Shown here: positions 43,842 through 58,005 of the stretch, piece by piece
How positions within the stretch are numbered: the first letter of the stretch is position 1
How the letters are laid out: each line of letters opens with the position of its first letter
Assembly: GCA_963663965.2 (NCBI GenBank)
Contig: CAXXFK010000042.1
Coordinates: 64,001-128,000, forward strand
DNA from: Sedimentisphaerales bacterium
Lineage (GTDB): Bacteria > Planctomycetota > Phycisphaerae > Sedimentisphaerales > SM23-30
Direction: 5' to 3'
Length of the DNA stretch: 64,000 bases
Program-made: the position numbers and the translations under genes
Notes under the pieces: model-generated
The model's database searches: none
What the model was told of the DNA's origin: nothing
What the model saw: the letters and a program-made list of their open reading frames with translations, nothing else

Positions 43842-44279
43842 ATGAAACAGAAACAGGAAGAACTAATCAGTTTGGCGGTTTGTGGGTTGTTTCCGATGAT
43901 TGTTGGTTTTTCGATTATTGTTACGATCTGTTATGACGGGGTGGGATTCAAGGCCGGAATTATGATGCTAAGCTGGCTGGCTGCGAGTGCTTTTATCTGG
44001 GTTGTGCCTGATATTTTGCATAAAATGGGTTTAAAAAAAGAGGTATTGCGTGATGAACGTGATGCTCAGATTCATAAAACGGCTGCCCTGATGGCTCATG
44101 TGGTGGTCTGGATTGGTCTGTTGGGCGCCAGTTTGCTGATCTGGGGCCGGGTGGGCAATGGTGGTTCTGTGCCGATTGAGGTATTGATGTTTTTGTGTGT
44201 TGGCGGTGTGATGCTGTTTCAGGTGGCTTTGGTGATTTTCAGCATGGTTCTGGAGGAAAGAGGATTGAGGCATGGCTGA
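43842..44279 (+). CDS. Four-TM membrane protein (DERD motif, DUF2178-like)
   Basis: Hydrophobic segments and LRDERDAQIHKTA; overlaps the downstream XRE gene. Confidence 0.75.
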   Translation: MKQKQEELISLAVCGLFPMIVGFSIIVTICYDGVGFKAGIMMLSWLAASAFIWVVPDILHKMGLKKEVLRDERDAQIHKTAALMAHVVVWIGLLGASLLIWGRVGNGGSVPIEVLMFLCVGGVMLFQVALVIFSMVLEERGLRHG

Positions 44280-44487
44280 AAGTAAATTGCGTAATCATAT
44301 CAGGCGGTTGCGTTTTGAGCATAATGAGATGACTCAGCTTCAGTTGGCTGAACAGGTCGGGGTTACGCGTCAGACGATTATTGCGATTGAGGCGGATCGC
44401 TATTCGCCTTCGCTGGTGCTGGCATTTAAAATCGCGCGGTTTTTTCATCGACCGGTGGATGAGGTTTTTGAATATATAGACGATTAA
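44272..44487 (+). CDS. XRE-family HTH transcriptional regulator
   Basis: MTQLQLAEQVGVTRQTIIAIEADRYSPSLVLAFKIARFF. Confidence 0.93.
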   Translation: MAESKLRNHIRRLRFEHNEMTQLQLAEQVGVTRQTIIAIEADRYSPSLVLAFKIARFFHRPVDEVFEYIDD

Positions 44488-44682
44488 TGGGTTGGTGGGG
44501 GGTGAGTTGCCGGGCGGGGCAATTTTGCGTAAAAGTGTGGCATTACGAAAGTTAGTTGACTGAAGGTATGGGATTTCTTATAATCCTAACCTTTGTGTAA
44601 GAAAGATAATTTACTATAGCGGCGACAGGTGGCTGGGGTGGTCCAACGGGATTCGTCGCAAGGTGTTGAGAATATATAGCTT

Positions 44683-45732
44683 ATGATAAATTCACAGACA
44701 GTGAAAGCGCTTGCCGAGCATGTGGGCGGCATCGTGGAGGGGGATGGTGACCTGTTAATCCGGGGGGCGTCAACTTTGAGTGAGGCCGGGCCGGATGAAA
44801 TTTCGTTTCTGGCCAATCCCAAATACGAAAAAGAGTTACAGACCACAAAGGCGGCTGTTATTGTGGTTAATGAGAAAATTCCGAATTATGGCCGGACAGT
44901 GATCCGGTGTAAGGATCCTTATTACGCGTTTATGCAATGTGTGGTATTGATTCATGGGCATCGGGAACATGAAAAGATCGGGGTCAGTGAACGGGCGAGC
45001 ATCGATTCATCGGCTCAAATCGGCGAGGGGGTGGATATCCATGATTTTACGGTGGTGTCGGCGGATGTGACAATTGGCGATCAGACCTGTATCTATTCCA
45101 ATTGCACGATCGGGCCGGGAACGAAGATCGGGAAAGAGTGTATTATCTATCCGAATGTAACGATTTACGATGGGTGTTCGATCGGGGACCGGTGTATTAT
45201 TCATTCCGGGACAGTGATCGGTCAGGATGGGTTTGGGTTCGCGACGCATGACGGTGTTCATCATAAGATCCCGCAGATTGGCGGGGTAGTGATCGAGGAT
45301 GATGTCGAGATCGGGGCAAATTGCGCGATTGACCGGGGGACGCTGGGGGATACGGTGATCGGTAAAGGGACGAAGATGAGCAACCTGATCGCGATCGGGC
45401 ATAATACCCGGATCGGGGCGCATTGTTTGCTGGTGGCCCAGGTCGGGATCGCCGGGAGTGTGAGTGTGGGGAACTATTGTGTGTTTGGCGGGCAGGTAGG
45501 CGTGGTGGGTCATATCAAGATTGGTGACCGGGTGAAGATCGGGGCGCAGTCGGGCGTGACGAATAATCTGGATGATGGTCAGATGGTGATGGGATCGCCG
45601 GCCTGGCCGATGAACGAGGCGAAGCGGTCGATGATGATGATGAAAAGCCTGCCGGATATCCGCAAGAAACTCAAGGATCTGGATCGATCGTTGCGGCAAT
45701 ATATTGGCGAGAGTGAAGACGAGACTGAATAA
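44683..45732 (+). CDS. lpxD: UDP-3-O-acylglucosamine N-acyltransferase
   Basis: [15 protein letters not shown], hexapeptide repeats, [36 protein letters not shown]. Confidence 0.96.
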
Positions 45733-45805
45733 GGGGCGTGGCCGCGGTGATGATATCGAGTGACATGAGATCAAAGATAAAAACCATTTTGGACCCATTA
45801 CCGGG

Positions 45806-46669
45806 TTGAGTATGCAGCGGGTGGAACAGGATAACCGACCGGTATTTGGATTGATCGCGGGGCAGGGGCGGTTGCCGTTTCTGGTGGCGCGTGGGGCGCG
45901 GGATGCGGGGTACCGGGTGGTGTGTGTGGGGTTTCGGGATCAGGCTGAGCCGGAGTTGATGGAGGCGGTGGACCGGTTTTACTGGGTGTCGCTGGCGCGG
46001 CCGGGGGGGTGGATCCGGAAGTTGACCAAGGAGGGGGTACGGGATACGATTATGGTGGGACGGGTGGCGAAGAAGCGGATTTATACGCCGTTTCGGCTGT
46101 TGACGTATTTGCCGGACTGGCGGGCGATTCGGGTGTGGTATGGGCGGCTGAGCCAGAAAGATAAGCGAGATGATACGTTATTGAAGGCGCTGGCGGATGA
46201 ACTGGCCAGCGGAGGTGTTATTTTGAACGATTCGACGCAGTTTTGTAAGGACCAGATGGCGACTGAGGGAGTGATGACCCGGACGCAGCCGGGTAAGGGG
46301 GTGGCGGGTGATATCGAGTTCGGGTGGGAGATTGTCAAGCGGCTGAGCGATCTGGATGTGGGGCAGGCGATCGCAGTGAAGGAAAAGGATATTATCGCGG
46401 TGGAGGCGATTGAAGGGACGGACCGGATGATCGAGCGGGCGGGCGAGTTGTGCCGGGCGGGGGGCTGGACGCTGATCAAGACGGCGCGGTCGGATCAGGA
46501 TATGCGGTTCGATGTGCCGACGATCGGGGTTGGGACGATCGAGAAGCTGCATCGGTGCAAGGCGACGTGTGTGGTGGTGGAGGCGGGCAAGACGATTATG
46601 ATCGACAAGGAAGAGACGCTGGCGCTGGCGGACCGGTATAAGATTGCGGTGGTGGGGCATCGGGTTTGA
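45806..46669 (+). CDS. lpxI: UDP-2,3-diacylglucosamine diphosphatase LpxI
   Basis: GLIAGQGRLP, LDVGQ, AVEAIEGTDRMI, QDMRFDVPTIG. Confidence 0.92.
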   Translation: MSMQRVEQDNRPVFGLIAGQGRLPFLVARGARDAGYRVVCVGFRDQAEPELMEAVDRFYWVSLARPGGWIRKLTKEGVRDTIMVGRVAKKRIYTPFRLLTYLPDWRAIRVWYGRLSQKDKRDDTLLKALADELASGGVILNDSTQFCKDQMATEGVMTRTQPGKGVAGDIEFGWEIVKRLSDLDVGQAIAVKEKDIIAVEAIEGTDRMIERAGELCRAGGWTLIKTARSDQDMRFDVPTIGVGTIEKLHRCKATCVVVEAGKTIMIDKEETLALADRYKIAVVGHRV

Positions 46670-47194
46670 GGCTGGAGAGGCAGTGAGGGGCTGGAATTGT
46701 AAGGGTTGATGGGGTAATCAGGCAGGGGAATCCGGGCCGGTCGGAATAAGGTATCACCTGGGAACTGCTATGGGATCGGTTTGTTTACACTTTGCTGAAC
46801 AGGCGATGGTAAGGTCTTGGATTTCAATGAGATGGATGATAAGGTTAGGGGAATTGGCTTCGTTTAGATTGGGGTGGCGGTAGTCAAGAGGGGGGTAGCA
46901 GGTAGAGAGAAGCAAGCAGGCAGGTAGCAAGCAGGGAGGAAGTAAAGAATCAGGAAGAGGACTGGAATGGGGGGCGAATAATGGTCGTTGGGTTCGTTTG
47001 GAACATGTTGTTATATAAGAGGTTAAGGTTGATTTTGCGGATGTTGGATTGGGCGGGCAAGGTTTGTTGTGGGCGGCCCAGATATAGTTGAAGGCTTTTG
47101 GGATTGACCGAATGGGTGGCCGGGGGTAATATGCTGGGCGGTTTGAAAGTTTTAAAGATTACTTAGATGGCGAATTTGAAAGGAGTATCCGGTT

Positions 47195-47985
47195 ATGGCT
47201 ATTGCGGTATCGATGGTGATGTTTGATGGGCCGGTCAAACTGGCGGTTGGCAAGATTACACAATACTTGAATGAGATCTGGGCTGACCTGCCGAAAGTTG
47301 GCGGGGCGCAGGAGCATGATAATATGGTGGCGTTTCAGCTGGGGGAGGCGGACGTGGCGCTGGGAGTGATCGCGGCGCCGATGCCGTGGGATGAGTTGGA
47401 GAGTGTGTGTGAGATGAGTCCGTTGTGGCCGGGGGCGGCTGAGGTGTTGAAGGAACACCGGGAGCATGTGATTGTGACGGTGCGGGGTGAGCTGGATCCG
47501 GTTGAGTTGTCGGGATTGCTGACGCAGGTGACGGCGGCGGTGATGGCGAGTTCGGAGGCGGCGCTGGGGGTGTACTGGGGAAATGCTTCGATGGTGGTTC
47601 CGAAGGATATGTTTATCGAATTTGCGGTGGATATTCTGCCGCAGGGGCCGCCGCTGTTTGTGTGGGTGAACTTTCAGGCGGGGCCGATGGAGGAGGAGGG
47701 GGTCAGCGGCGGATTTACAACGGGACTGGAGGCGCTGGGGCTGATGGAGTTGGAGACGGAGAACGCGACGGAGTCGCCGGGGAAATGAAGGAGCGGCTGG
47801 TGGACCTGGCGGGGTACCTGGTGGAAAACGGGCCGGTGATTGGCGATGGCGATACGGTGGGGCGCGATGAGGATGAGAAGATACGGGTGGTGTACGCGGA
47901 ATCGGCGTTTGGCAAGGAGGGGGAGGTGATGCGGCTGGAGTATGGCGATGGGGAGGAGAAGAAGGCGTGGTGGAAGTTCTGGTGA
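47195..47985 (+). pseudogene. DUF4261-like protein split by a single-base frameshift
   Basis: ORF 47195-47788 ends ESPGK*; the -1 frame continues EMKERLVDLAGYLVENGPVIGDGDTVG...KKAWWKFW. One extra G in GGGG at 47779-47782 would restore a single ORF. Confidence 0.7.
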
Positions 47986-48545
47986 GGGGGGGCAAGCCGC
48001 GACCAAAGAAGAAATTTCACACGAAGCCGCCAAGCCACAAAGGGAAACGGCCAGACTGGTTGAGTTGGAGTTGGAAAGTGGAATACGAATTTTCTCTGGG
48101 CGATTAGATTTGACCGCAACTCCCTAAAAGCTTCAAGAGATCAAGATTTGAACCACGAAGCCGTCCTCCTGAGGCGGATCTTCGACCTTCGGCTACACGA
48201 AGAGCGCCTGCGGCGCTACACGAAGGGCCGGGGGCCTGGTTGAGGAATTGATTCGGATTGAAACTTTGAACAGAAAAAAGGACCATTTACTATGTAATGA
48301 ATAAAACTTATAATACATGTTCTTTGAAACGACGCGAAAAACAAGAGTATGAAGGATAGCATTACGAATTAGTACTAAATAAAACAGGGATTAATGGATG
48401 TCTGATTTGACTACCCTGTGATGATTATAAAGATTATTAATATTAAGAATTATGATCTGATGGAGAGGGATTGATTTCACAGGTATACAAGATTGAATAT
48501 AACCATATTGGTAATAAATTAACTATTTCAATAATGAATCTTTAA

Positions 48546-50924
48546 GTGAATATGCCATTATTAAGATATAATTTGGATATGCTGGGATGGTATGAGTTTG
48601 AACATTTATGCCAAACTCTACTCAAACATAAATTAAGTTTAGGAATTGAAGCTTGGGGAGGAACAAATGATTATGGACGAGATGCGTATTATACTGGAGA
48701 ATTAAAGTATCCAGGAAATGAAATCCAAAAGGGCCCATTTCTTTTTCAATGTAAGTTTATAAACGGAGCTAATTCTGCCTCAGCTAAGATTGAAAAACCT
48801 ATTTTAAATGCAGTTAAAAAGGAATGCCAACAAATTACAGATCGTCTAACAAGCAATAAATGGACAATTATTCCAACAGTGTATACTTTTTTGACGAATG
48901 CTGTTTTATCTTCAACTCTTAGAGAAAAAATAAAATCTCAAATAAAAGCAGTTTTACCAAATTCTGATATTGTCTTACTAGGTGGAAATGATATTTGTGG
49001 GTTCATTGATTTGACATCTGGCATAGCACGAAAATTTCCACAGATATTATCTCTTAATGATTTAGATATATTACTTGAACAATGTGTTAACCGGGACATA
49101 TTAAATAGGAGTGAGGCTGCAATAGAAGAAGCAAAAGAGATTAGCAAAGTATTTGTACCTACAGAAGCTTATTCGAAAGCCATTAAAACATTAAGAGAGC
49201 ATTTTTATGTAGTTCTTGAAGGACCACCTGAAGTTGGGAAAACTGCGATAGGAAGGATGATAGCGTTGTCATACTTACCAGAAGGATGGGAAGTAATCGA
49301 ATGCCAAGCTCCGAATGATTTCCTAAAAATATATAACAGGACACAAAAACAAATATTTATCACTGATGATTCTTTTGGTCGGACGGAATATAATCCTGAG
49401 AGGGTAAGGCTATGGCAAGATGATTTACCTGCAATTCTAAGAAAGGTCAATAAGGACCATTTACTTATAATGACCAGTCGAAAACATCTTTTGGAAATGG
49501 CAAAAGAAAAGCTTGATATTCCTGGATCTCATGAAGACTTTCCAAAGCTTTCAGAAGTGTTAATAGATGTATCACAGTTAATAAAAATTGAGAAGACTTT
49601 AATGCTTTATAAACATATGAAACAAGTTAAATTACCTGAAGATATCAAAGGTGTTGTTCGAGTATTTGCTGAAAAAGTTATTATGCATTCAGGATTCACG
49701 CCAGAACGGATTAGAGTACTCTCAAACAAAGTCAAAGCTGAAAAATTTTCTATTCAGCTAATCGATAATATTTTGAGAAATCCAACAGATAGAATGAGTA
49801 AAACATATCGAGAGTTGCCCGTAGCGTATAAATGGTTTATGGTATCTGTATTAATTAATCAATCAAATTATTATTCAGCACAATACCAAAACACGAAAAG
49901 GTCTTATGAAAAATTGTGCCCATTAGAAGAATTAGTAGATTTTGAAAAAATAATTGCACAGTTATCTGAAGCTTTCATAAAACTTAAAGAATACATTGGA
50001 AGCAATAAGCCTCAAATAGATTGGGTGCATCCGAGTTGTGGCGATATGGTTTCTAAAGAATTATCTTCATGTGCTATAGATCGAAAGCAATTTCTAGAAT
50101 TTTGCGGAGAGTCTGGACTAATGTTTGCAGTTTCAGTTGGTGGTGGAGATGTTGGACAGAGAGTATTGCCTTTATTAATAAGTTCGAAAGACTGGGAAAT
50201 ATTTGAGAAACGATGTCTAGCTTGTTATAATACAAATCTTCTAAATCGCATTTATGATTCGGTTCAACAATTATCCAAAACCCCAAACCATTATAAAGAT
50301 AAAGCAAAGCTTGAAATATTATTAAAAAAATCCTTGATAACAACAATAATACATATCAATGATAATGGAAGCATGTACAATAATCATATAAATATTTTTA
50401 GAATTGTTAAGCAATATTCAAATGAAAAACTGCCTCCTATAAATTATTATGAAGCGTGGTTAAGTGTGGCTGATTCTGCAATTGGGATTTTAAATGACGA
50501 TTATAAGGAATGGCATAAATGGGGTGACATAGACCATTTTATTTCTTTAACCAAAGTCATTTTAGAATATGATCCAACGTGTTTTGAAACGAATAATATG
50601 CGGGATAAATGGCAGGAATTTATAGCCACCTTGATCAAGCGAGGATTAGAAGTTTCTAATTATCAAATGTTTGAAGATGATCATGAAATGGTACAAGAGT
50701 TGTTTGAATGTTATGATGAGAGTAGTAAGCTTTTTAAAGATATATCTGCAATGATAGAAAGTGATGATGTTAAAGAACAGTGTAAAACTATTAGCAATAA
50801 TTTTAATTGTTTAATGGATGATATATCAGAATATTTACCATACGAAGGCGATGTTGGTAGTGATGAGAGTAGGGCATATTATGATAATGATTTTAGTGTG
50901 CAAAGTATTTTTAGAGACTTGTAA
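48546..50924 (+). CDS. Restriction-endonuclease-like N-terminus + STAND-type (nSTAND3-like) P-loop NTPase; candidate defence protein
   Basis: FEHLCQ...GTNDYGRDA...FQCKF (PD-(D/E)xK/Mrr-like); Walker A GPPEVGKT; Walker B IFITDDSFG; IMTSR; markedly AT-rich compared with its flanks. Confidence 0.75.
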   Translation: MNMPLLRYNLDMLGWYEFEHLCQTLLKHKLSLGIEAWGGTNDYGRDAYYTGELKYPGNEIQKGPFLFQCKFINGANSASAKIEKPILNAVKKECQQITDRLTSNKWTIIPTVYTFLTNAVLSSTLREKIKSQIKAVLPNSDIVLLGGNDICGFIDLTSGIARKFPQILSLNDLDILLEQCVNRDILNRSEAAIEEAKEISKVFVPTEAYSKAIKTLREHFYVVLEGPPEVGKTAIGRMIALSYLPEGWEVIECQAPNDFLKIYNRTQKQIFITDDSFGRTEYNPERVRLWQDDLPAILRKVNKDHLLIMTSRKHLLEMAKEKLDIPGSHEDFPKLSEVLIDVSQLIKIEKTLMLYKHMKQVKLPEDIKGVVRVFAEKVIMHSGFTPERIRVLSNKVKAEKFSIQLIDNILRNPTDRMSKTYRELPVAYKWFMVSVLINQSNYYSAQYQNTKRSYEKLCPLEELVDFEKIIAQLSEAFIKLKEYIGSNKPQIDWVHPSCGDMVSKELSSCAIDRKQFLEFCGESGLMFAVSVGGGDVGQRVLPLLISSKDWEIFEKRCLACYNTNLLNRIYDSVQQLSKTPNHYKDKAKLEILLKKSLITTIIHINDNGSMYNNHINIFRIVKQYSNEKLPPINYYEAWLSVADSAIGILNDDYKEWHKWGDIDHFISLTKVILEYDPTCFETNNMRDKWQEFIATLIKRGLEVSNYQMFEDDHEMVQELFECYDESSKLFKDISAMIESDDVKEQCKTISNNFNCLMDDISEYLPYEGDVGSDESRAYYDNDFSVQSIFRDL

Positions 50925-51033
50925 GATTTTTTGCATTTAGCATTGTGAGCTAAAATGTAGTTCTTTCATTTATTGAAAATAAGGGAAGATATTCCGATTA
51001 GGCCCAGAAGAACCCGGATTTTGCTTTGCTCAA

Positions 51034-51057
51034 AATGGACCAACAAGTTTGCCCATT
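51034..51057. repeat. REP-like palindrome type A, degenerate copy
   Basis: AATGGACCAACAAGTTTGCCCATT, related to 52265-52286. Confidence 0.55.
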
Positions 51058-51103
51058 CTCTTCTATCGGCTAGCACATTAATTATTGTTGTGGGATATTT
51101 GGT

Positions 51104-52114
51104 ATGAAATCAGGTAATGATAAAGTTCGCAAGATATTTATATCAAGTCAGGATTTAGGAAACTGGGATGTGATTAAGTTTTTGGAATCGCTTCATTCGT
51201 TGGGGATGATTTATGAATATGCAGATGATTATTGTGCAAATATTCAATCGGTCATAGCAAGGAATGATATTTTTGTTGCGGTCATATCTGAGGCTTATAT
51301 TCGTTCTAAAGCAATGGCAGAGCAAGTGCAATATGCTGTTCAGTTATGGGAGGAATACAAACGGCCGTTGCTTTTTATATTTAGGATAGATAAAACACCT
51401 TTATTTCATGATTTTGGGGTTTTAACGCATACAGCCCAGGAATTGCCAATGAAGCCCGGAAGAGCCGCCGCAAAACTACTGGTTGCAAAGGGGAAGAAAC
51501 CAATAGAAATACTTAAATCGGGGATAGATGCGCCTGACTTTCAAGAATATATGGAAATACTTTCACGCGAGATGGGATTGGCAAGATTTACAAATCATGT
51601 CGAGTCTTCCACGGTATTGCGTATTTTATTTAGGCCGACATTTGATCCAGAATGCGTGGTTGAAATAAGATGGAATGAACAAAATGTGATAATGGTTTTA
51701 ATTTCGATGCAAACGAATGTCGAGCAGTGGGAATGTTATGTGCGTCAAAGCCGATCAGGAAAATGGCATCCACTAAAGCCTGCCCCCGATCCACCAGAGT
51801 TATGGAAAGAAGAAATTGTTTTACCCCATGATGTATTATTTGAATTGAAGTGGATGATCATTGATTCAACCTGGAGAGAGGCAATGAATGCTCAAGCTTC
51901 ATCAAGAACTAATTCTATTTGTGATGGGATGGGGATGGATATCGATATGTATAGCGGGGGGAAAGTCAACTCAATATTTTATAATTGTCCAGATCTCGGC
52001 ACGCCGATTCATACATTCGTTAGTCATGTTTTAATATTAGCAAAATCAGAATTCATATTGCCGAAAAGTAAGGCTTTGATTGAAAAATTATTGAGGTATA
52101 CCGTATGGGAATGA
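51104..52114 (+). CDS. Protein with an N-terminal TIR-like domain and an unknown C-terminal domain
   Basis: KIFISS...IQSVIARNDIFVAVISEAYIRSKAMAEQVQYA...LLFIFRID pattern. Confidence 0.6.
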   Translation: MKSGNDKVRKIFISSQDLGNWDVIKFLESLHSLGMIYEYADDYCANIQSVIARNDIFVAVISEAYIRSKAMAEQVQYAVQLWEEYKRPLLFIFRIDKTPLFHDFGVLTHTAQELPMKPGRAAAKLLVAKGKKPIEILKSGIDAPDFQEYMEILSREMGLARFTNHVESSTVLRILFRPTFDPECVVEIRWNEQNVIMVLISMQTNVEQWECYVRQSRSGKWHPLKPAPDPPELWKEEIVLPHDVLFELKWMIIDSTWREAMNAQASSRTNSICDGMGMDIDMYSGGKVNSIFYNCPDLGTPIHTFVSHVLILAKSEFILPKSKALIEKLLRYTVWE

Positions 52115-52577: not shown

Positions 52578-54134
52578 ATGAGTACTGAAGAAAACGGGCG
52601 TGAAACGGTAGAGGCAAGTGGTCCGGAAGAGAAAGAATCGAAGCGCGAGGCGGGCCGGCCGGGACGGGGGCCGAAGCGTCGATTGCGGCGGAGTTGGGGG
52701 GGCTGGATTGGAGTGCTGACGCGCCGGGGGCTCTGGCTGGGGTTGGTGGCGGCGGTGGTGGCGATACCGATGGTGTGGCGGTTTATGCCGCAGCAATACG
52801 AGGCGACGGTGGCTGTTCAGATCAAGAAGATAATAAACAGCTTCATTTTTGGTGATGAGACGACGGATCGGCCGATGCCGAATTATGAAAGTTTTCGGAA
52901 TACCCAGGCGGAATATCTAGTCAGTCCACTTGTTATGGATGAAGTGGCTAATCAATTGGGAAAAGAGAAAATCTCTCTAAATATTTTAAGGGCTAAACCT
53001 GATGGTTTCTTTCGATTATTGAAAGAAATCTGGATACGTAAAGACTTGTCGCTCTGGTTCCGGGAGAGTTCTGGACTTGAGAATCGACTTATGAAGCTGG
53101 TCGATAACGGGACGATTGTTGCGGTTCCGCAACCTGACAGCGAAATGATAACAGTGACAATGAGGCATACAGATCCAGACGAGGCGCTGCGAATTGTGAG
53201 AGCGATTTGTATGGCATATATGCTGAAGATTGTCAGGCCGATGGAAGTTCATGAGACTGGGAAATTACGTGATTTACATGTTGAAAAGGATCAGTTTTGC
53301 AGATCTATACTGAATTTACGGGAAAGGATTCAGGAAATTGCTATGAAATATGGCACAGGCGATCTGGAGCGGTGGCAGGAAGTTACGATGGAACGCAAAG
53401 TGGCAATTGCTAAGAGAGTCGGTGAACTGGAACGGGAAAAGGTCGCTATCGAAGGTGAGCTGGCTAAACTGGAAGGACAGAATGGTACGGAATCGTCGAT
53501 TCCAGCAGTAGAAGATGAACTACTCAAGCAGGATTATATTAATAAGGATCCGCAGGTACAAAGCCTGATCCGAAATATCATTGAAGTACAGGAGCAGCTA
53601 ATTAAGGCTCATGAAATACTAAGTGAACAAAATCCGGAGCTGTGTCGGCTGCAAAACAGGCTGGTTCTATTACAATCAGCGTTGAATAAACGTAAGACGG
53701 AACTGGAACAGAGCTATTATGAGTTGCGGATGGGGGGGGCTGGTGCGGTAAGCAGTGTAGCTATGGCCCAAGCGATCAGGGAAGAGCCTATGCGATCGAT
53801 CAAAGAGCAGTTGGAGAACCGCGACGATGAGCTTGACAAGTTAAAGACAGAATTAGAAAGACTGGAGAAAGATTATAAAAACGCGGGCCGGGATTTATTG
53901 GAAATGTGGCAACGGCAAGATGACCTGACAATTCTTAAGCCAATATACGACAGGATAATGACTCGAATATATCAATTGGAAATTGAATTGTCAAGACGGC
54001 CGGGCCGGATTGAGGTGCCGTATGAACCGACATCAAATGCGTTGCCTGATCTGCGCGGGTGGATTACGTTCTGGCTGGGTGGTGGGATTGGGGTGGCGGT
54101 TGTTGGGATCTTTCTGTTGCGGAAGGTTGGTTGA
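52578..54134 (+). CDS. GumC/Wzc-N-like polysaccharide co-polymerase-type membrane protein without a kinase domain
   Basis: N-terminal TM, QYEATVAVQI, FRNTQAEYLVSP, SEMITV, long coiled coil, C-terminal TM. Confidence 0.65.
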   Translation: MSTEENGRETVEASGPEEKESKREAGRPGRGPKRRLRRSWGGWIGVLTRRGLWLGLVAAVVAIPMVWRFMPQQYEATVAVQIKKIINSFIFGDETTDRPMPNYESFRNTQAEYLVSPLVMDEVANQLGKEKISLNILRAKPDGFFRLLKEIWIRKDLSLWFRESSGLENRLMKLVDNGTIVAVPQPDSEMITVTMRHTDPDEALRIVRAICMAYMLKIVRPMEVHETGKLRDLHVEKDQFCRSILNLRERIQEIAMKYGTGDLERWQEVTMERKVAIAKRVGELEREKVAIEGELAKLEGQNGTESSIPAVEDELLKQDYINKDPQVQSLIRNIIEVQEQLIKAHEILSEQNPELCRLQNRLVLLQSALNKRKTELEQSYYELRMGGAGAVSSVAMAQAIREEPMRSIKEQLENRDDELDKLKTELERLEKDYKNAGRDLLEMWQRQDDLTILKPIYDRIMTRIYQLEIELSRRPGRIEVPYEPTSNALPDLRGWITFWLGGGIGVAVVGIFLLRKVG

Positions 54135-54308: not shown

Positions 54309-55673
54309 TCAGCTGAAGCGTTGGCTGAGGCGGTTGAGGATGGTTTCGGTTTCCCATTGGGGGTGACGGGAGCATTGGGCGGTTTCGCTGGCGGTGTTGC
54401 CCAGGTTGATGACGATGCCGGATTTTTTTTCGATGGTGTTCCAGGAGCAGAACTGGATATCGTGATGTTCTGACATCTGAATGATCTGGGCGCGGAGAGC
54501 GGGCCGGCCGCGATTGGCGCGGAGGTAAGGGGGCGCGACGGGCGGAACGCCGGGCAGGCGATGGTTGAGCAGGCCGTTGCGGTCGAGGCGATCGAAGTGG
54601 CCGTCTGCAACCAGGCCGAAGCGGATATCGATTTCTTTGAGCCGGGTGGCGATTTGGGGATCGATCACGGCGCAGCCAGTCAGGTCGCAGCCGGTGAAGT
54701 TCCGCATGAGATTGAGTTTGATGGCCCAGTCGAGCCGGTCGGAGACCGCTAGCGGTCCGGCGGCCAGCAGGTCCAGGGTTTCCTGCCAGAGTTGGCAGGC
54801 ATAACCGGCCCAGGGCGGCAGGTGTTCGGAGTGAAGGTGGGCGCGGACGATATCGAGATAGCGGCGCTGGATGCCCAGGGCGCTGTCGTGGGCGCCTCCG
54901 GCAAGCCGGACAGTCCGGGTCAGATCGAGGGTGGCGGTGAAGTCATTGAAAACCTGTAGTTCGCTATTTTCCAGAAAATCCACCGGTGGGCGAGAAAGCA
55001 AGCCGGCTTCGATCAGTTTAAGGATCAAGGCCGTGGTCGCGTATTTTAAAAAGAGAGCGGTTTGCGAAAACAGGCTGTCGCCGTGATTGATGTGGATCGA
55101 ACAGCGCCGATCCGGTTCGCGGCGGATGCAGGTGTCGATAATGGTGCGCTGTTTGGGGCCGTTGACACCGGTGAGATGGCGAACACGGGGTGACAGGGTG
55201 AACCAGGCGTTATCCATATGTTTGTAGTCGAGGCCGCCCGATCCGGTATAGATGATCCGTGAGACGAGATGGGGCATGATCTGCCGGGCGTAGGCACTGG
55301 CCTGAGGGCGGGTACTCTGGTAATTTTCGTGGCAGCCCCAGGTGTGACCGAGGTAATCGACATTGGTCCGGATCAGCTGGAATTCGCATGCCTGTGCTTC
55401 GCGGGCGAGGATGTCTTCGATGACTTTGAGGTTGTAGATGAGGTCCCAGGGATTGAAACATTCGCAGGTGCAGCCTTCGGGATGGTGGCCGGCGTCGATG
55501 TAGAATCGGCCCCACTCCCAGAAGAAGCCGTTGGGTCCGGGCAGGGTATGGTAGTTGGCCTGGCAACGGGACAATAGCCCAGGAGCGAGGCGCTCCTGAG
55601 CTTTACGGCTGTACCCGAGAATGCCGAATTCGCGTTCTTCACCAAAACAGCACATGGATTCAATACGGGTCAT
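54309..55673 (-). CDS. PafA/Dop-family (Pup ligase-like) protein
   Basis: FGEEREFG (GxExEFG), GRFYIDAGHHPEGCTCEC, TNVDYLGHTWGCHENY, LVSRIIYTGSG, SPR, HINHGDS, LKYATTALIL, ALGIQRRYL, LDWAIKL, C-terminal W. Confidence 0.87.
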   Translation of the reverse strand: MTRIESMCCFGEEREFGILGYSRKAQERLAPGLLSRCQANYHTLPGPNGFFWEWGRFYIDAGHHPEGCTCECFNPWDLIYNLKVIEDILAREAQACEFQLIRTNVDYLGHTWGCHENYQSTRPQASAYARQIMPHLVSRIIYTGSGGLDYKHMDNAWFTLSPRVRHLTGVNGPKQRTIIDTCIRREPDRRCSIHINHGDSLFSQTALFLKYATTALILKLIEAGLLSRPPVDFLENSELQVFNDFTATLDLTRTVRLAGGAHDSALGIQRRYLDIVRAHLHSEHLPPWAGYACQLWQETLDLLAAGPLAVSDRLDWAIKLNLMRNFTGCDLTGCAVIDPQIATRLKEIDIRFGLVADGHFDRLDRNGLLNHRLPGVPPVAPPYLRANRGRPALRAQIIQMSEHHDIQFCSWNTIEKKSGIVINLGNTASETAQCSRHPQWETETILNRLSQRFS

Positions 55674-55828
55674 TCGCCGGACTCCTGCTCGACGCGTTCG
55701 CGCAGGAAGGTCTGGCTGTCGGACGAAAGGGCATCCTGGATGATCTGGCTGCCCATCTGCAACAGGGACGTTTCATTCTGACGATTGACATCGGTGCGAC
55801 AACATTTTTCACTTTCTGTCATAGGCAT
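55670..55828 (-). CDS. Pup/UBact-like small protein modifier, 52 aa (not in the ORF track)
   Basis: Manual translation MPMTESEKCCRTDVNRQNETSLLQMGSQIIQDALSSDSQTFLRERVEQESGE*; AAGGAG RBS 8 nt upstream; its TGA overlaps the ATG of the PafA-like gene (ATGA). Confidence 0.85.
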   Translation of the reverse strand: MPMTESEKCCRTDVNRQNETSLLQMGSQIIQDALSSDSQTFLRERVEQESGE

Positions 55829-55876
55829 GGGTAATTCTCCTTAAATGACATGGTTGGGATTAATAGACAGGTAACA

Positions 55877-57670
55877 CTATGAATTCGGATCCGAAACGTT
55901 TAAGTTATCGATCATTTGTAACAGGCGCTGGTTGAGCAGATGAACGCAGGTTTGCAGATCAGGCTTGCCGTAGAACCAGTCCAGAGGGTAGCGGATTTTG
56001 AGATCGGCGAGTTCGGCGTCGATACGGCTGTTGGCGAAACGGTTGTAACGGGTGAACAGCAGCCGCTGCTGGACGCGGGGCAGGAAATAGCGCAGCAGGA
56101 TTTCCCAGCCGGGCCGGTCGCGGTAGTCGGAAATGTCGGGATATCCGCAGACAATAGCCGGGGAGAGGCTGTCGCCGGAGTATTGCCGGCCGAGGAAAGC
56201 CACCAGCAATTCGGCAGAATAGCTGATGGTCAATGATTCGGGATTAAAATGGTCGGACCGGATCAGATCAACGGCCATCTCGTTACGGTAGTAATCGAGA
56301 ATGGGGATCAGGCGCTGATGCATGTCGTGCATTCTGGTGATCTTGTCGGGTGTGGCAATGAGGATGAGTCTCAGACCGGGCTTGCGCCGGCATTCATGAT
56401 GGAGCAGCGAAATGGTTTGGGGATCGATCGGGGTATCCGTTTTTAAAACGTGGGATTCCGATTCGAATTTCCGGCGTGTTTCGCGACATTCATATTTGAC
56501 GCTCTGGCTGGTGGTGAGCTGTTCGATCCGGGTGAGGATATCGGGCAATAAGGGGTGGACGGCTGCCTGTGTTTGCGCGTTCTGGCGGGCCAGTTTGTAA
56601 TAGCGCAAGGCGGTTCTTTTTTCGCCGGACAGATCGCCCAGTCGGTGATAAACCGGGACAAAGAATCGGTGGCCGGCGCAGCAGGTACGCCTGAGAATGC
56701 TCAGCGCGCGGCTATAGCATTTGCGCGCCAGGGTGTGGTGTCCCGTGCGGTAGTACCATTCGCCGCGCAGGCGGAAGTAGACGGCGAAGTCCGGATGGTT
56801 TAATTTGCGGTAGGTCTGCCAGAGCAGTCTGCCGGTATTTTTCAGGTATGCCCTAGTGGTGAGGATGGCATCAGGTCCCTCCAATTCGAGCTTGCATTCC
56901 GCCAGGGTCAACATGGCGCGGACCACCTGAGGGCTGGCCATGGCGTAGTTTTTGATGAAATGAGCGAGCGCCTGTACGGACAGGGTTTGGGCCTGCCGCC
57001 AGTTGCCGGCGAGGGCATGGAGTTCGGCGATGTGGTGCTGAATTTCCATGGTGCGTGAATGGTGGGCGCCGTAGCACTGGACGAAATCGGCATGGGCCTT
57101 ATTGAGAATGAACAGGGCATCGTTGTAATAGCCCAGCTCGACCAGCAGGCTGCCCAGTCGGTAAAAGGCGTGTGCCGTATTGCTGTCTCGAACGGGGTAT
57201 CGGGTATTATAGTACTGAATAGCGGGTTTGATCAGTTGGTAGGCGGCTTGGTAGTCGCCATAGCGGGTGTGGATACAGGCCGCATTGACCTGATAAAATG
57301 CGCGGTTCGAACTGCTGTTGGGCATGCCGAGTACCTGGGAGATTAAAACCACGGCCTGGTTAAACTCGGCCAGTTCCATCAGGCAGATACTCAGGTTGTT
57401 GAGATAGGTCGTATCGTTGGGCGTCTGCTCGAGAGCCTGGATATAGGCCTGGGTGGCTTCGGTGAGATGGCCCGCCCGTTTGGAGGACAGTCCCAGCCAG
57501 TTGTAGATATCCGCCACGCCGGAGGGCCGATCGTCAGGCGGAATGCGATAGAAGCAGGCCAGCGCCATGCGGTAATAGCGGGCAGATTTGCGGAATTCGC
57601 CACGAGTAAAACATTCTCCGCCCGCACTGCAGCAGGCAGTCATACGCTCCTTTGGGGTTACCATAGACAC
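55877..57670 (-). CDS. TPR-repeat protein with a C-terminal DUF4062/TIR-like domain
   Basis: Multiple TPRs (IYNWLGL..K..G...EA..AY..AL, YLNNLS, AFYRLGSLL..LG.Y..AL, HPDFA); C-terminal LRLILIAT...LLVAFLGRQY...YP....YRDR..WE resembles DUF4062. Confidence 0.7.
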   Translation of the reverse strand: MSMVTPKERMTACCSAGGECFTRGEFRKSARYYRMALACFYRIPPDDRPSGVADIYNWLGLSSKRAGHLTEATQAYIQALEQTPNDTTYLNNLSICLMELAEFNQAVVLISQVLGMPNSSSNRAFYQVNAACIHTRYGDYQAAYQLIKPAIQYYNTRYPVRDSNTAHAFYRLGSLLVELGYYNDALFILNKAHADFVQCYGAHHSRTMEIQHHIAELHALAGNWRQAQTLSVQALAHFIKNYAMASPQVVRAMLTLAECKLELEGPDAILTTRAYLKNTGRLLWQTYRKLNHPDFAVYFRLRGEWYYRTGHHTLARKCYSRALSILRRTCCAGHRFFVPVYHRLGDLSGEKRTALRYYKLARQNAQTQAAVHPLLPDILTRIEQLTTSQSVKYECRETRRKFESESHVLKTDTPIDPQTISLLHHECRRKPGLRLILIATPDKITRMHDMHQRLIPILDYYRNEMAVDLIRSDHFNPESLTISYSAELLVAFLGRQYSGDSLSPAIVCGYPDISDYRDRPGWEILLRYFLPRVQQRLLFTRYNRFANSRIDAELADLKIRYPLDWFYGKPDLQTCVHLLNQRLLQMIDNLNVSDPNS

Positions 57671-57702: not shown

Positions 57703-58005
57703 TTATTCAGTCGGGTAATAGCTTTCAATCAGTTTGAGTGAGCGGGCCGCCCGGCCTTCGCCGGGATGGCGGTCCAGAAACACTTTTAAAAGCGACTGGC
57801 ATTGTCGATATTGTTTTCGGTATAATAACAATGCCGCCAGAAGATCGGTATACCGCCAGTTGTCATCTGACGGTTGGTTCGATGTGGCACGCAGCATATC
57901 GATCGCCATATCGAAATGGCCATGCCGAATCAGTGTTCTGGCCTGGCGATACAGGCTGAATAAATTTCCCTTGTTCATCGTTGATACCTGTTTATAATTA
58001 TTCAT
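57703..58005 (-). CDS. Small TPR-like helical protein
   Basis: LYRQARTLIRHGHFDMAIDML...LLAALLLYRKQYRQCQSLLKVFLDRHP; co-oriented first gene of the operon. Confidence 0.65.
   Translation of the reverse strand: MNNYKQVSTMNKGNLFSLYRQARTLIRHGHFDMAIDMLRATSNQPSDDNWRYTDLLAALLLYRKQYRQCQSLLKVFLDRHPGEGRAARSLKLIESYYPTE

Follow-up and report, generated by a model that had tools for sequence, protein, structure and literature searches.

The subject of this analysis is a group of four genes on the minus strand of a 64,000-nucleotide stretch, hereafter the window, from the genome of a Sedimentisphaerales bacterium of the phylum Planctomycetota (GenBank assembly GCA_963663965.2, contig CAXXFK010000042.1, positions 64,001 to 128,000). 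At its centre lies a small gene (55670..55828, minus strand), recognised from its open reading frame (ORF) and from tag-profile matches, whose 52-residue product ends in ...ESGE and is a candidate relative of the protein tag Pup. It is followed by the gene of a 454-residue PafA-like ligase of the Pup_ligase family (54309..55673, minus strand), and is preceded by two genes for tetratricopeptide repeat (TPR) and TPR-like proteins.

The small ORF consists of 52 codons beginning with ATG, and its product reads MPMTESEKCC...DSQTFLRERVEQESGE. Since the surrounding stop-to-stop frame spans only 56 codons, a longer form of the tag is impossible. An AAGGAG ribosome-binding site, read directly from the sequence (55837..55842, minus strand; CTCCTT on the plus strand), is located 8 nucleotides 5' of the ATG, while the TGA stop codon (55670-55672) and the ATG of the ligase gene (55671-55673) share a four-base ATGA overlap. 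The original prediction, made from the letters of the stretch, had described this frame, its ribosome-binding site, its coupling to the ligase gene and its QESGE end, all of which are seen in the sequence. In length and in its G[EQ] ending the product falls within the signature of 50-90 residues and C-terminal G[EQ] given in PMC2588565; in place of the canonical GG[QE], its penultimate pair is SG. A disordered N-terminus and a helical C-terminus are predicted for it from its alignment to Pup. No sigma-54 promoter pattern was found near the operon (three matches in the window against 4.1 expected by chance), and scans for sigma-70 promoters and terminators remained at chance level.

Homology of the tag and of its ligase

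A hidden Markov model (HMM) of the putative tag was built from 43 distinct small ORFs located directly upstream of related ligase genes, with the window ORF left out, and was compared with all 158,907 stop-to-stop frames of 25-200 residues present in the six frames of the whole 7.24-Mb genome. The window tag was the sole match (E 2.5e-6, 31.1 bits), the runner-up having an E-value of 2.8. When aligned with hhalign to the 43 related tags, the window tag matched over residues 15-51 with a probability of 93.9% and an E-value of 1.5e-7. The family core LL.aGd.aI..ALS.DSeaFL.a.rQ.GG[QE] stands against LLQMGSQIIQDALSSDSQTFLRERVEQESGE in the window tag, and the part common to both reads ...I..aLS.DS..FL......G[EQ]. 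In this alignment the hydrophobic residues conserved in both helices are also present in the window tag; about 25 columns of the Gly/Pro-rich middle are missing from it, and its conserved core is preceded by 14 residues, compared with about 33 in the family. As a lead only, the nearest clusters to the tag in the ESM Atlas (score 0.81) consist of proteins of 61-64 residues, with Pfam Pup present in 33% and 16% of them. The commonest recorded phylum of the nearest of them (61-residue proteins, 33% Pfam Pup) is Uroviricota, which hints at phage-encoded Pup-like tags; no relative was found among viral contigs scanned with the ligase alignment.

The ligase matches PF03136 with 187.8 bits over residues 48-414. 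Against the PafA model (TIGR03686) it scores 142.8 bits, through an unbroken match of residues 10-408 that starts at profile position 4, and against the Dop model 132.3 bits, starting at profile position 82. Both scores lie far below their cut-offs (551.3, that of the PafA equivalog, and 492.3), and their pattern is the same as in the paralogues that lie downstream of the tag in related loci. At E up to 1e-10, 166 homologues were found, the best 120 of which are 29-41% identical; a scan of genome contigs with the ligase returned only one distant actinobacterial locus.

The spacing between the GxExE and RFYxD..HPE motifs is 45 residues in the window ligase against 45-53 residues in downstream or untagged paralogues (both motifs were found in 13 of 15), and the same regular expression detected GxExE in none of the nine upstream paralogues, nor in the second PF03136 gene of locus L070. 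With this short GxExE-RFYxD spacing, the window ligase is without a Dop-type insert. Alignment A1, of 22 ligase sequences with the window ligase among them, has 50 invariant columns, which include the N-terminal GxExE and the YxD..H.E motifs, and all of these are retained by the window ligase. In a quick maximum-likelihood tree of 43 sequences, of which the careful search is unfinished and to which a long-branch warning applies, upstream and downstream paralogues are split with a value of 99 in the Shimodaira-Hasegawa-like approximate likelihood ratio test (SH-aLRT), and the window ligase falls among the downstream ones; its sister (93) is P0033, a 767-residue ligase with weak C-terminal TPR matches. 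The actinobacterial protein L003 was tried as a Dop/PafA reference for this tree and dropped: it fell in the upstream clade on an unreliable long branch, yet NCBIfam scores PafA higher for it.

The AlphaFold2 model of the ligase (predicted local distance difference test, pLDDT, 79.8; predicted template modelling score, pTM, 0.82) finds its ten best PDB matches among structures of Dop or PafA, with template modelling (TM) scores of 0.62-0.74; the modelled structure does not separate Dop from PafA. Judged by its profile scores, its motifs and its place in the tree, the window ligase is a PafA-like, not a Dop-like, paralogue.

A family of Pup-like tags in related loci

With alignment A1, 80 metagenome loci were fetched. 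A script found an ORF of 62-70 residues ending in G[QE] directly before the ligase gene in 53 of the 80, yielding 43 distinct sequences; this took up the original prediction, which had proposed a profile of small ORFs upstream of related ligases, and the profile so obtained matches the window tag. By HMM, a tag frame lies on the ligase strand in 58/80 loci and, among the 72 loci with at least 230 nucleotides upstream, in 53, leaving 19 without; these are counts and not tests, the HMM having been made from 43 of the same ORFs. The tags found by HMM end in Gln in 42 cases and in Glu in 16, and their stop codon is mostly situated within a few bases of the ligase start.

A further profile (A3), composed of the related tags and the window ORF, was searched against 1.84 billion cluster representatives (50% identity clusters) and returned 935 of them at a threshold of E 1e-3, of which 455 also reached E 1e-10. 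The 150 best representatives measure 62-91 residues (median 66) and end in GGQ (113), GGE (28), SGQ (6) or otherwise (3). Lysine is lacking in 95 of them, and cysteine is present in 11; the Cys-Cys pair which the original prediction had noticed near the N-terminus of the window tag, and which occupies residues 9-10, is thus unusual, as had been stated. Family members are typically 62-69 residues long, mostly start with MRxRER and have a Gly/Pro-rich middle; examples are the loci L006:3777-3980 and L008:3702-3902 (among L004-L083) and the proteins P0123-P0272. When the names of ten hits, with 22 listed sequences, were looked up, eight sequences were named, each 'hypothetical protein', and one derived from an Acidobacteriota metagenome-assembled genome.

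Of the 43 related tags, five matched the Pfam model of Pup, with 0.012 as the best E-value, and one matched TIGR03687 (E 0.011). The UBact model NF033388, searched at E up to 1, matched none of the 43 and did not match the window ORF either; the best match to the UBact model in the genome (E 0.5) was found at unrelated places. Among 177,635 PDB sequences, the five best matches of the tag-family profile were Pup (E 0.0025-0.05), aligned end to end as far as the terminal GGQ/GGE. Because its best PDB matches are Pup and the UBact model matches none of the 43 tags, the family is Pup-like and not UBact-like, and the proposal of a Pup/UBact-like modifier stands in its first half and falls in its second. 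Current models do not capture this Pup-like tag family.

Seventeen long loci of relatives were annotated with Pfam, and members of three of them also with NCBIfam. In nine of the 17, the tag is preceded by the gene of an Mpa-like AAA ATPase (Prot_ATP_ID_OB and AAA), followed by that of a Dop-like Pup_ligase paralogue; the one ATPase tested scored 275.5 bits against TIGR03689. The upstream paralogue scored higher with the Dop model than with the PafA model in 3/3 cases tested and the downstream paralogue higher with the PafA model, likewise in 3/3. No 20S subunit was found within the 4-kb flanks of the annotated loci.

Two further observations were made in these loci. A Clp-type AAA_lid_9 protein of about 380-390 residues recurs beside the PafA-like gene, often downstream of it (L006:5768-6934, L031:5477-6640, L043:5878-7014, L054:6199-7377); it is ClpV/ClpB/ClpA-like by NCBIfam, at scores far below the cut-offs, and may be a further component of the relatives' systems. 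The 19 loci without a tag mostly encode longer ligases, of about 700-730 residues, and have in the place of the tag a conserved upstream DNA element made of the boxes GTGATCGGnAGTG... and GGTGATTGA, about 90 nucleotides apart (alignment A4: L019:3830-3990, L054:3795-3990, L058:1330-1480, L065:1925-2085, L068:1230-1430, L070:3825-3985, L061:2005-2220). This element may be an operator or a leader, and the 'VFAID' open frame that runs over it is probably incidental.

Genomic setting

The genome is 94.6% complete and distributed over 42 contigs, and partner absences are to be read as 'not found' and not as proven absence. The window ligase is its one PF03136 gene: neither a second such gene (Dop) nor any match to PF00227 (proteasome/HslV), PF05639 (Pup) or PF16450 (the Mpa OB domain) was found in the genome search. 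Of 401 genomes sampled from the phylum, 43 carry PF03136, the present one included, and the genes are of two kinds. The first consists of paralogue pairs with tags of the unnamed family described above (6/30 fetched loci, E 8e-25 to 8e-15); in the five phylum genomes with such tags, a single PF00227 match was found in two and none in three. In the second kind the ligase is single, an insert of about 70 residues interrupts its match, and the adjoining small ORF ends in ...VPGGGE. ORFs of 48-70 residues ending in ...Y[VL]K....VPGGGE were seen beside single Pup_ligase genes at L091, L093, L095-L097, L102, L103 and L107, and the tag profile does not match these GGGE tags. In the excerpted text of PMC2588565, this second kind is predicted, as a membrane-anchored type, for Rhodopirellula and Plesiocystis. 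By its profile homology, the window tag belongs to the first kind; its ligase is single and without the insert.

Upstream of the tag gene lies that of a 597-residue TPR protein (55877..57670, minus strand), with N-terminal matches to TPR_12 (61.5 bits) and TPR_2 (47.4 bits) and an orphan C-terminal domain of about 200 residues. For its C-terminal 203 residues no homologue except the protein itself was found, and a PDB sequence search was empty; the AlphaFold2 model of this part is unusable (pLDDT 42), and the ESM Atlas gave a weak TIR-like lead (score 0.87). The probable first gene of the operon is a 100-residue TPR-like ORF (57703..58005, minus strand), 32 nucleotides upstream of the 597-residue gene and on the same strand, whose TPR matches are sub-threshold only (TPR_14 23.2 bits against a cut-off of 23.5). 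TPR modules are recurrent companions of this ligase clade: precomputed TPR domains occur in five of the best 120 of the 166 ligase homologues, with two more, P0033 included, below threshold, and in locus L044 a DUF4062-NACHT-TPR gene is found upstream. In the window operon itself, Pfam gave no DUF4062 match at E up to 1. The 597-residue protein is likely a partner or adaptor. None of the four operon proteins is represented by a model in PADLOC.

The operon, with a GC content of 54-61%, has the lpxD/lpxI genes on one side and a PEP-CTERM gene on the other and is part of a mosaic region; a helix-turn-helix gene follows it. On the plus strand, at 48546-52114, an AT-rich block (31-40% GC) encodes a 792-residue nSTAND3 nucleoside triphosphatase (PADLOC candidate PDC-S73, E 1e-42) and then a protein of 336 residues that matches TIR_2 weakly; the block probably represents a defence cassette of its own within the same island. 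Convergent with the ligase gene, at 52578-54134 on the plus strand, lies the gene of a 518-residue protein with an N-terminal membrane segment, a weak Wzz match, a long coiled coil and a weak PADLOC match to LmuB (E 1.4e-5). Further away, at 44000-48000, the GC skew of the plus strand is extreme, at 0.36-0.49 where most of the window has 0.1-0.16, and both the coding and the intergenic sequence of this strand are very rich in G there; a G-rich frame at 47195-47788 on the plus strand seems to run on in another frame to about 47985, which may reflect a frameshift. A role of the operon in conflict or defence is possible but unsupported, the neighbourhood alone suggesting it.

Interpretation and comparison with known systems

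The reading that we favour, to which we assign a probability of about 0.7, is that the operon encodes a stripped-down variant of a Pup-type system, composed of a TPR protein, a short Glu-ended tag and a PafA-like ligase and placed in an accessory island beside STAND/TIR-like genes. The alignments support the placement of the window tag as a shortened, divergent Pup relative coupled to its ligase, and the link to Pup would run through the intermediate profile of 43 tags (tag against profile, E 1.5e-7 and 2.5e-6; profile against Pup in the PDB, E 0.0025-0.05). According to the excerpted texts of PMC2588565 and PMC13696103, PafA joins the gamma-carboxylate of the terminal Glu of Pup to lysine, a Gln-ended Pup needs prior deamidation by Dop, and Dop also removes Pup. 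Because the window tag already ends in Glu, no deamidation should be needed and the predicted tag could be ligated directly, so that it is likely to be attached to other proteins without Dop, unfoldase or proteasome. Since no depupylase or unfoldase-protease was found, the tagging would be irreversible and would leave a permanent mark and, in a cell without Mpa or proteasome, that mark would not be a classical degradation signal. The retained residues 15-51 would correspond to the two ligase-binding helices and the tail of Pup, whereas the long disordered N-terminal half, which in Pup is threaded by the unfoldase, would have been cut from about 33 to 14 residues, a shortening that fits the missing Mpa-type ATPase. 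The co-transcribed TPR protein probably selects the targets or is itself the target.

With the Pup/PafA system (PF05639 and TIGR03687; PF03136 and TIGR03686) the locus shares a small G[EQ]-ended protein gene adjoining the gene of a PafA-family carboxylate-amine ligase; with the related tags as intermediates, the C-terminal half of the window tag can be aligned to the two helices and the tail of Pup, and the ligase is modelled with the Dop/PafA fold. It differs in that the tag matches no Pup model, has 52 residues and ends in SGE instead of GG[QE], in that the ligase stays at 142.8 bits where the PafA equivalog cut-off is 551.3, and in that a TPR partner gene is present and the genome searches turned up neither Dop nor Mpa/ARC nor a 20S proteasome. 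The unnamed Pup-like family of Acidobacteriota and others is matched directly by profile, and the window tag occupies the same position, tightly coupled to a PafA-like gene. Its members, in contrast, have a Dop-like gene upstream wherever this could be examined and often an Mpa-like ATPase, where the window has the TPR gene instead, and the 52 residues and SGE ending of the window tag stand against their greater length, common MRxRER start and prevailing GGQ.

UBact, reportedly described by Lehmann and colleagues in 2017, is said to be a small G[EQ]-ended tag of non-actinobacterial bacteria, encoded beside PafA/Dop homologues. By this description the locus is alike, with a small G[EQ]-ended tag beside a PafA/Dop homologue; it is unlike in that the model NF033388 is unmatched. 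Corynebacterium retains both Dop and the ARC ATPase. Pupylation of the Corynebacterium type takes place although the genome is without 20S genes, as set out in the excerpted text of PMC13696103, and the window genome resembles it in that no 20S genes were found and differs in that neither Dop nor ARC was found. A proteasome-unlinked Pup with a single membrane-inserted ligase was predicted for planctomycetes and Plesiocystis by Iyer, Burroughs and Aravind 2008 (PMC2588565). The present locus shares with this type, as described there, the phylum, the single ligase paralogue, the Glu-ended tag and the lack of linkage to a proteasome; it differs in that the ligase is without the insert of about 70 residues, the tag is from another family, and the partner is a TPR protein and not a membrane protein.

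Several observations weigh against the favoured reading. No family of Pfam or NCBIfam is matched by the tag ORF at E up to 1, and a word-based search of 5.8 billion proteins with the tag returned the tag alone, because of which purifying selection on it is not measurable. In the alignment the tag is longer by one residue between its second helix and its end, and SGE is the ending of none of the 150 best representatives of the family. A Dop-like frame is located upstream of the tag in 38/38 related loci with at least about 1.2 kb upstream (28 with Gln-ended and 10 with Glu-ended tags), 20 further loci having had too little flank, and the Dop-less state has no precedent within the ligase clade. 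Moreover, the ligase was found in 0/60 relatives of the same family and order, and its branch, with a length of 2.5, is very long where the median is 0.61; both also fit a decaying import. The original prediction had read the Glu-ended tag as ligation-ready and as the explanation of the missing dop gene. The profile homology, the Gly-Glu end and the single PafA-like gene speak for the former, whereas the explanation does not hold: an association of Glu-ended tags with Dop loss was considered and rejected, 10/10 testable Glu-ended relatives keeping their Dop-like gene. The terminal Glu is a necessary condition here and not an explanation of the loss.

The failure of curated models and of the word search would be expected if the small frame were a chance ORF in an intergenic leader with a coincidental resemblance to Pup. 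Against this stand the independent profile, which picks out this frame alone in the genome, the position of the frame exactly where 53/72 testable related loci have a tag, and the ribosome-binding site and coupling; because the tag HMM matches this genome frame alone, chance is excluded for practical purposes, and we infer that the 52-residue ORF is a real gene. That the gene belongs to a decaying remnant of a horizontally acquired Mpa-Dop-tag-PafA cluster, its frames open and tagging no longer working, is unlikely, with the following in its favour: relatives hold the fuller set of Mpa-like ATPase, Dop-like protein, tag and PafA-like ligase, the tag is 14 residues below the family median and without GG, and the long ligase branch, the absence from relatives of the organism and the unprecedented Dop-less state agree with decay. 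Yet the frames of tag and ligase are intact, the strong ribosome-binding site and ATGA coupling are kept as in relatives, every invariant ligase column is retained together with the hydrophobic positions of both tag helices, and the terminal Glu, the sole state that works without Dop, is present. Rather improbable, in turn, is a small protein that is not conjugated to proteins at all and serves as a regulator, chaperone or substrate mimic of the ligase or the TPR protein, or as the sole substrate, with an amine added to its terminal Glu. In its favour speak the want of a known target, the unusual Cys-Cys pair, and the fact that enzymes of the glutamine synthetase / gamma-glutamyl-cysteine ligase fold also ligate carboxylates to small amines, according to the excerpted text of PMC2588565; the homology to Pup-type tags nevertheless reaches the very C-terminus, and the ligase groups with protein-ligating PafA-like paralogues.

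The stripped-down Pup-type variant can be extended to a bolder hypothesis, which we hold to be speculative and on balance doubtful. The operon would then be a minimal one-way module of TPR selector, ligation-ready tag and PafA-like ligase, which has shed Dop, the unfoldase and any link to a proteasome, spreads from phylum to phylum within accessory or defence islands and, as part of a conflict system, labels proteins that are foreign or the cell's own. It would thereby be the Pup-based equivalent of those ubiquitin-like conjugation systems that have lately been connected with phage defence. No link of Pup ligases to phage defence was found in the literature searched, nor a Dop-less, Mpa-less derivative of the tag family with a TPR partner, nor any account of the large Acidobacteriota-type tag family in its own right. 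The supplement of PMC2588565 may already list acidobacterial members, as a figure legend of that source names Solibacter usitatus. A single Dop/PafA homologue in some Planctomycetes is mentioned in the excerpted text of Hecht et al. 2020 (PMC7947786).

The analysis exposes a large Pup-like tag family, of 935 clusters, which current models do not name, and genome annotations therefore systematically miss its tag gene. Pupylation has been studied almost only as an actinobacterial route to the proteasome, while here its chemistry appears reduced to a tag, a ligase and a TPR partner. If active, the system of this planctomycete would be a natural test case for irreversible, non-degradative Pup-type tagging.

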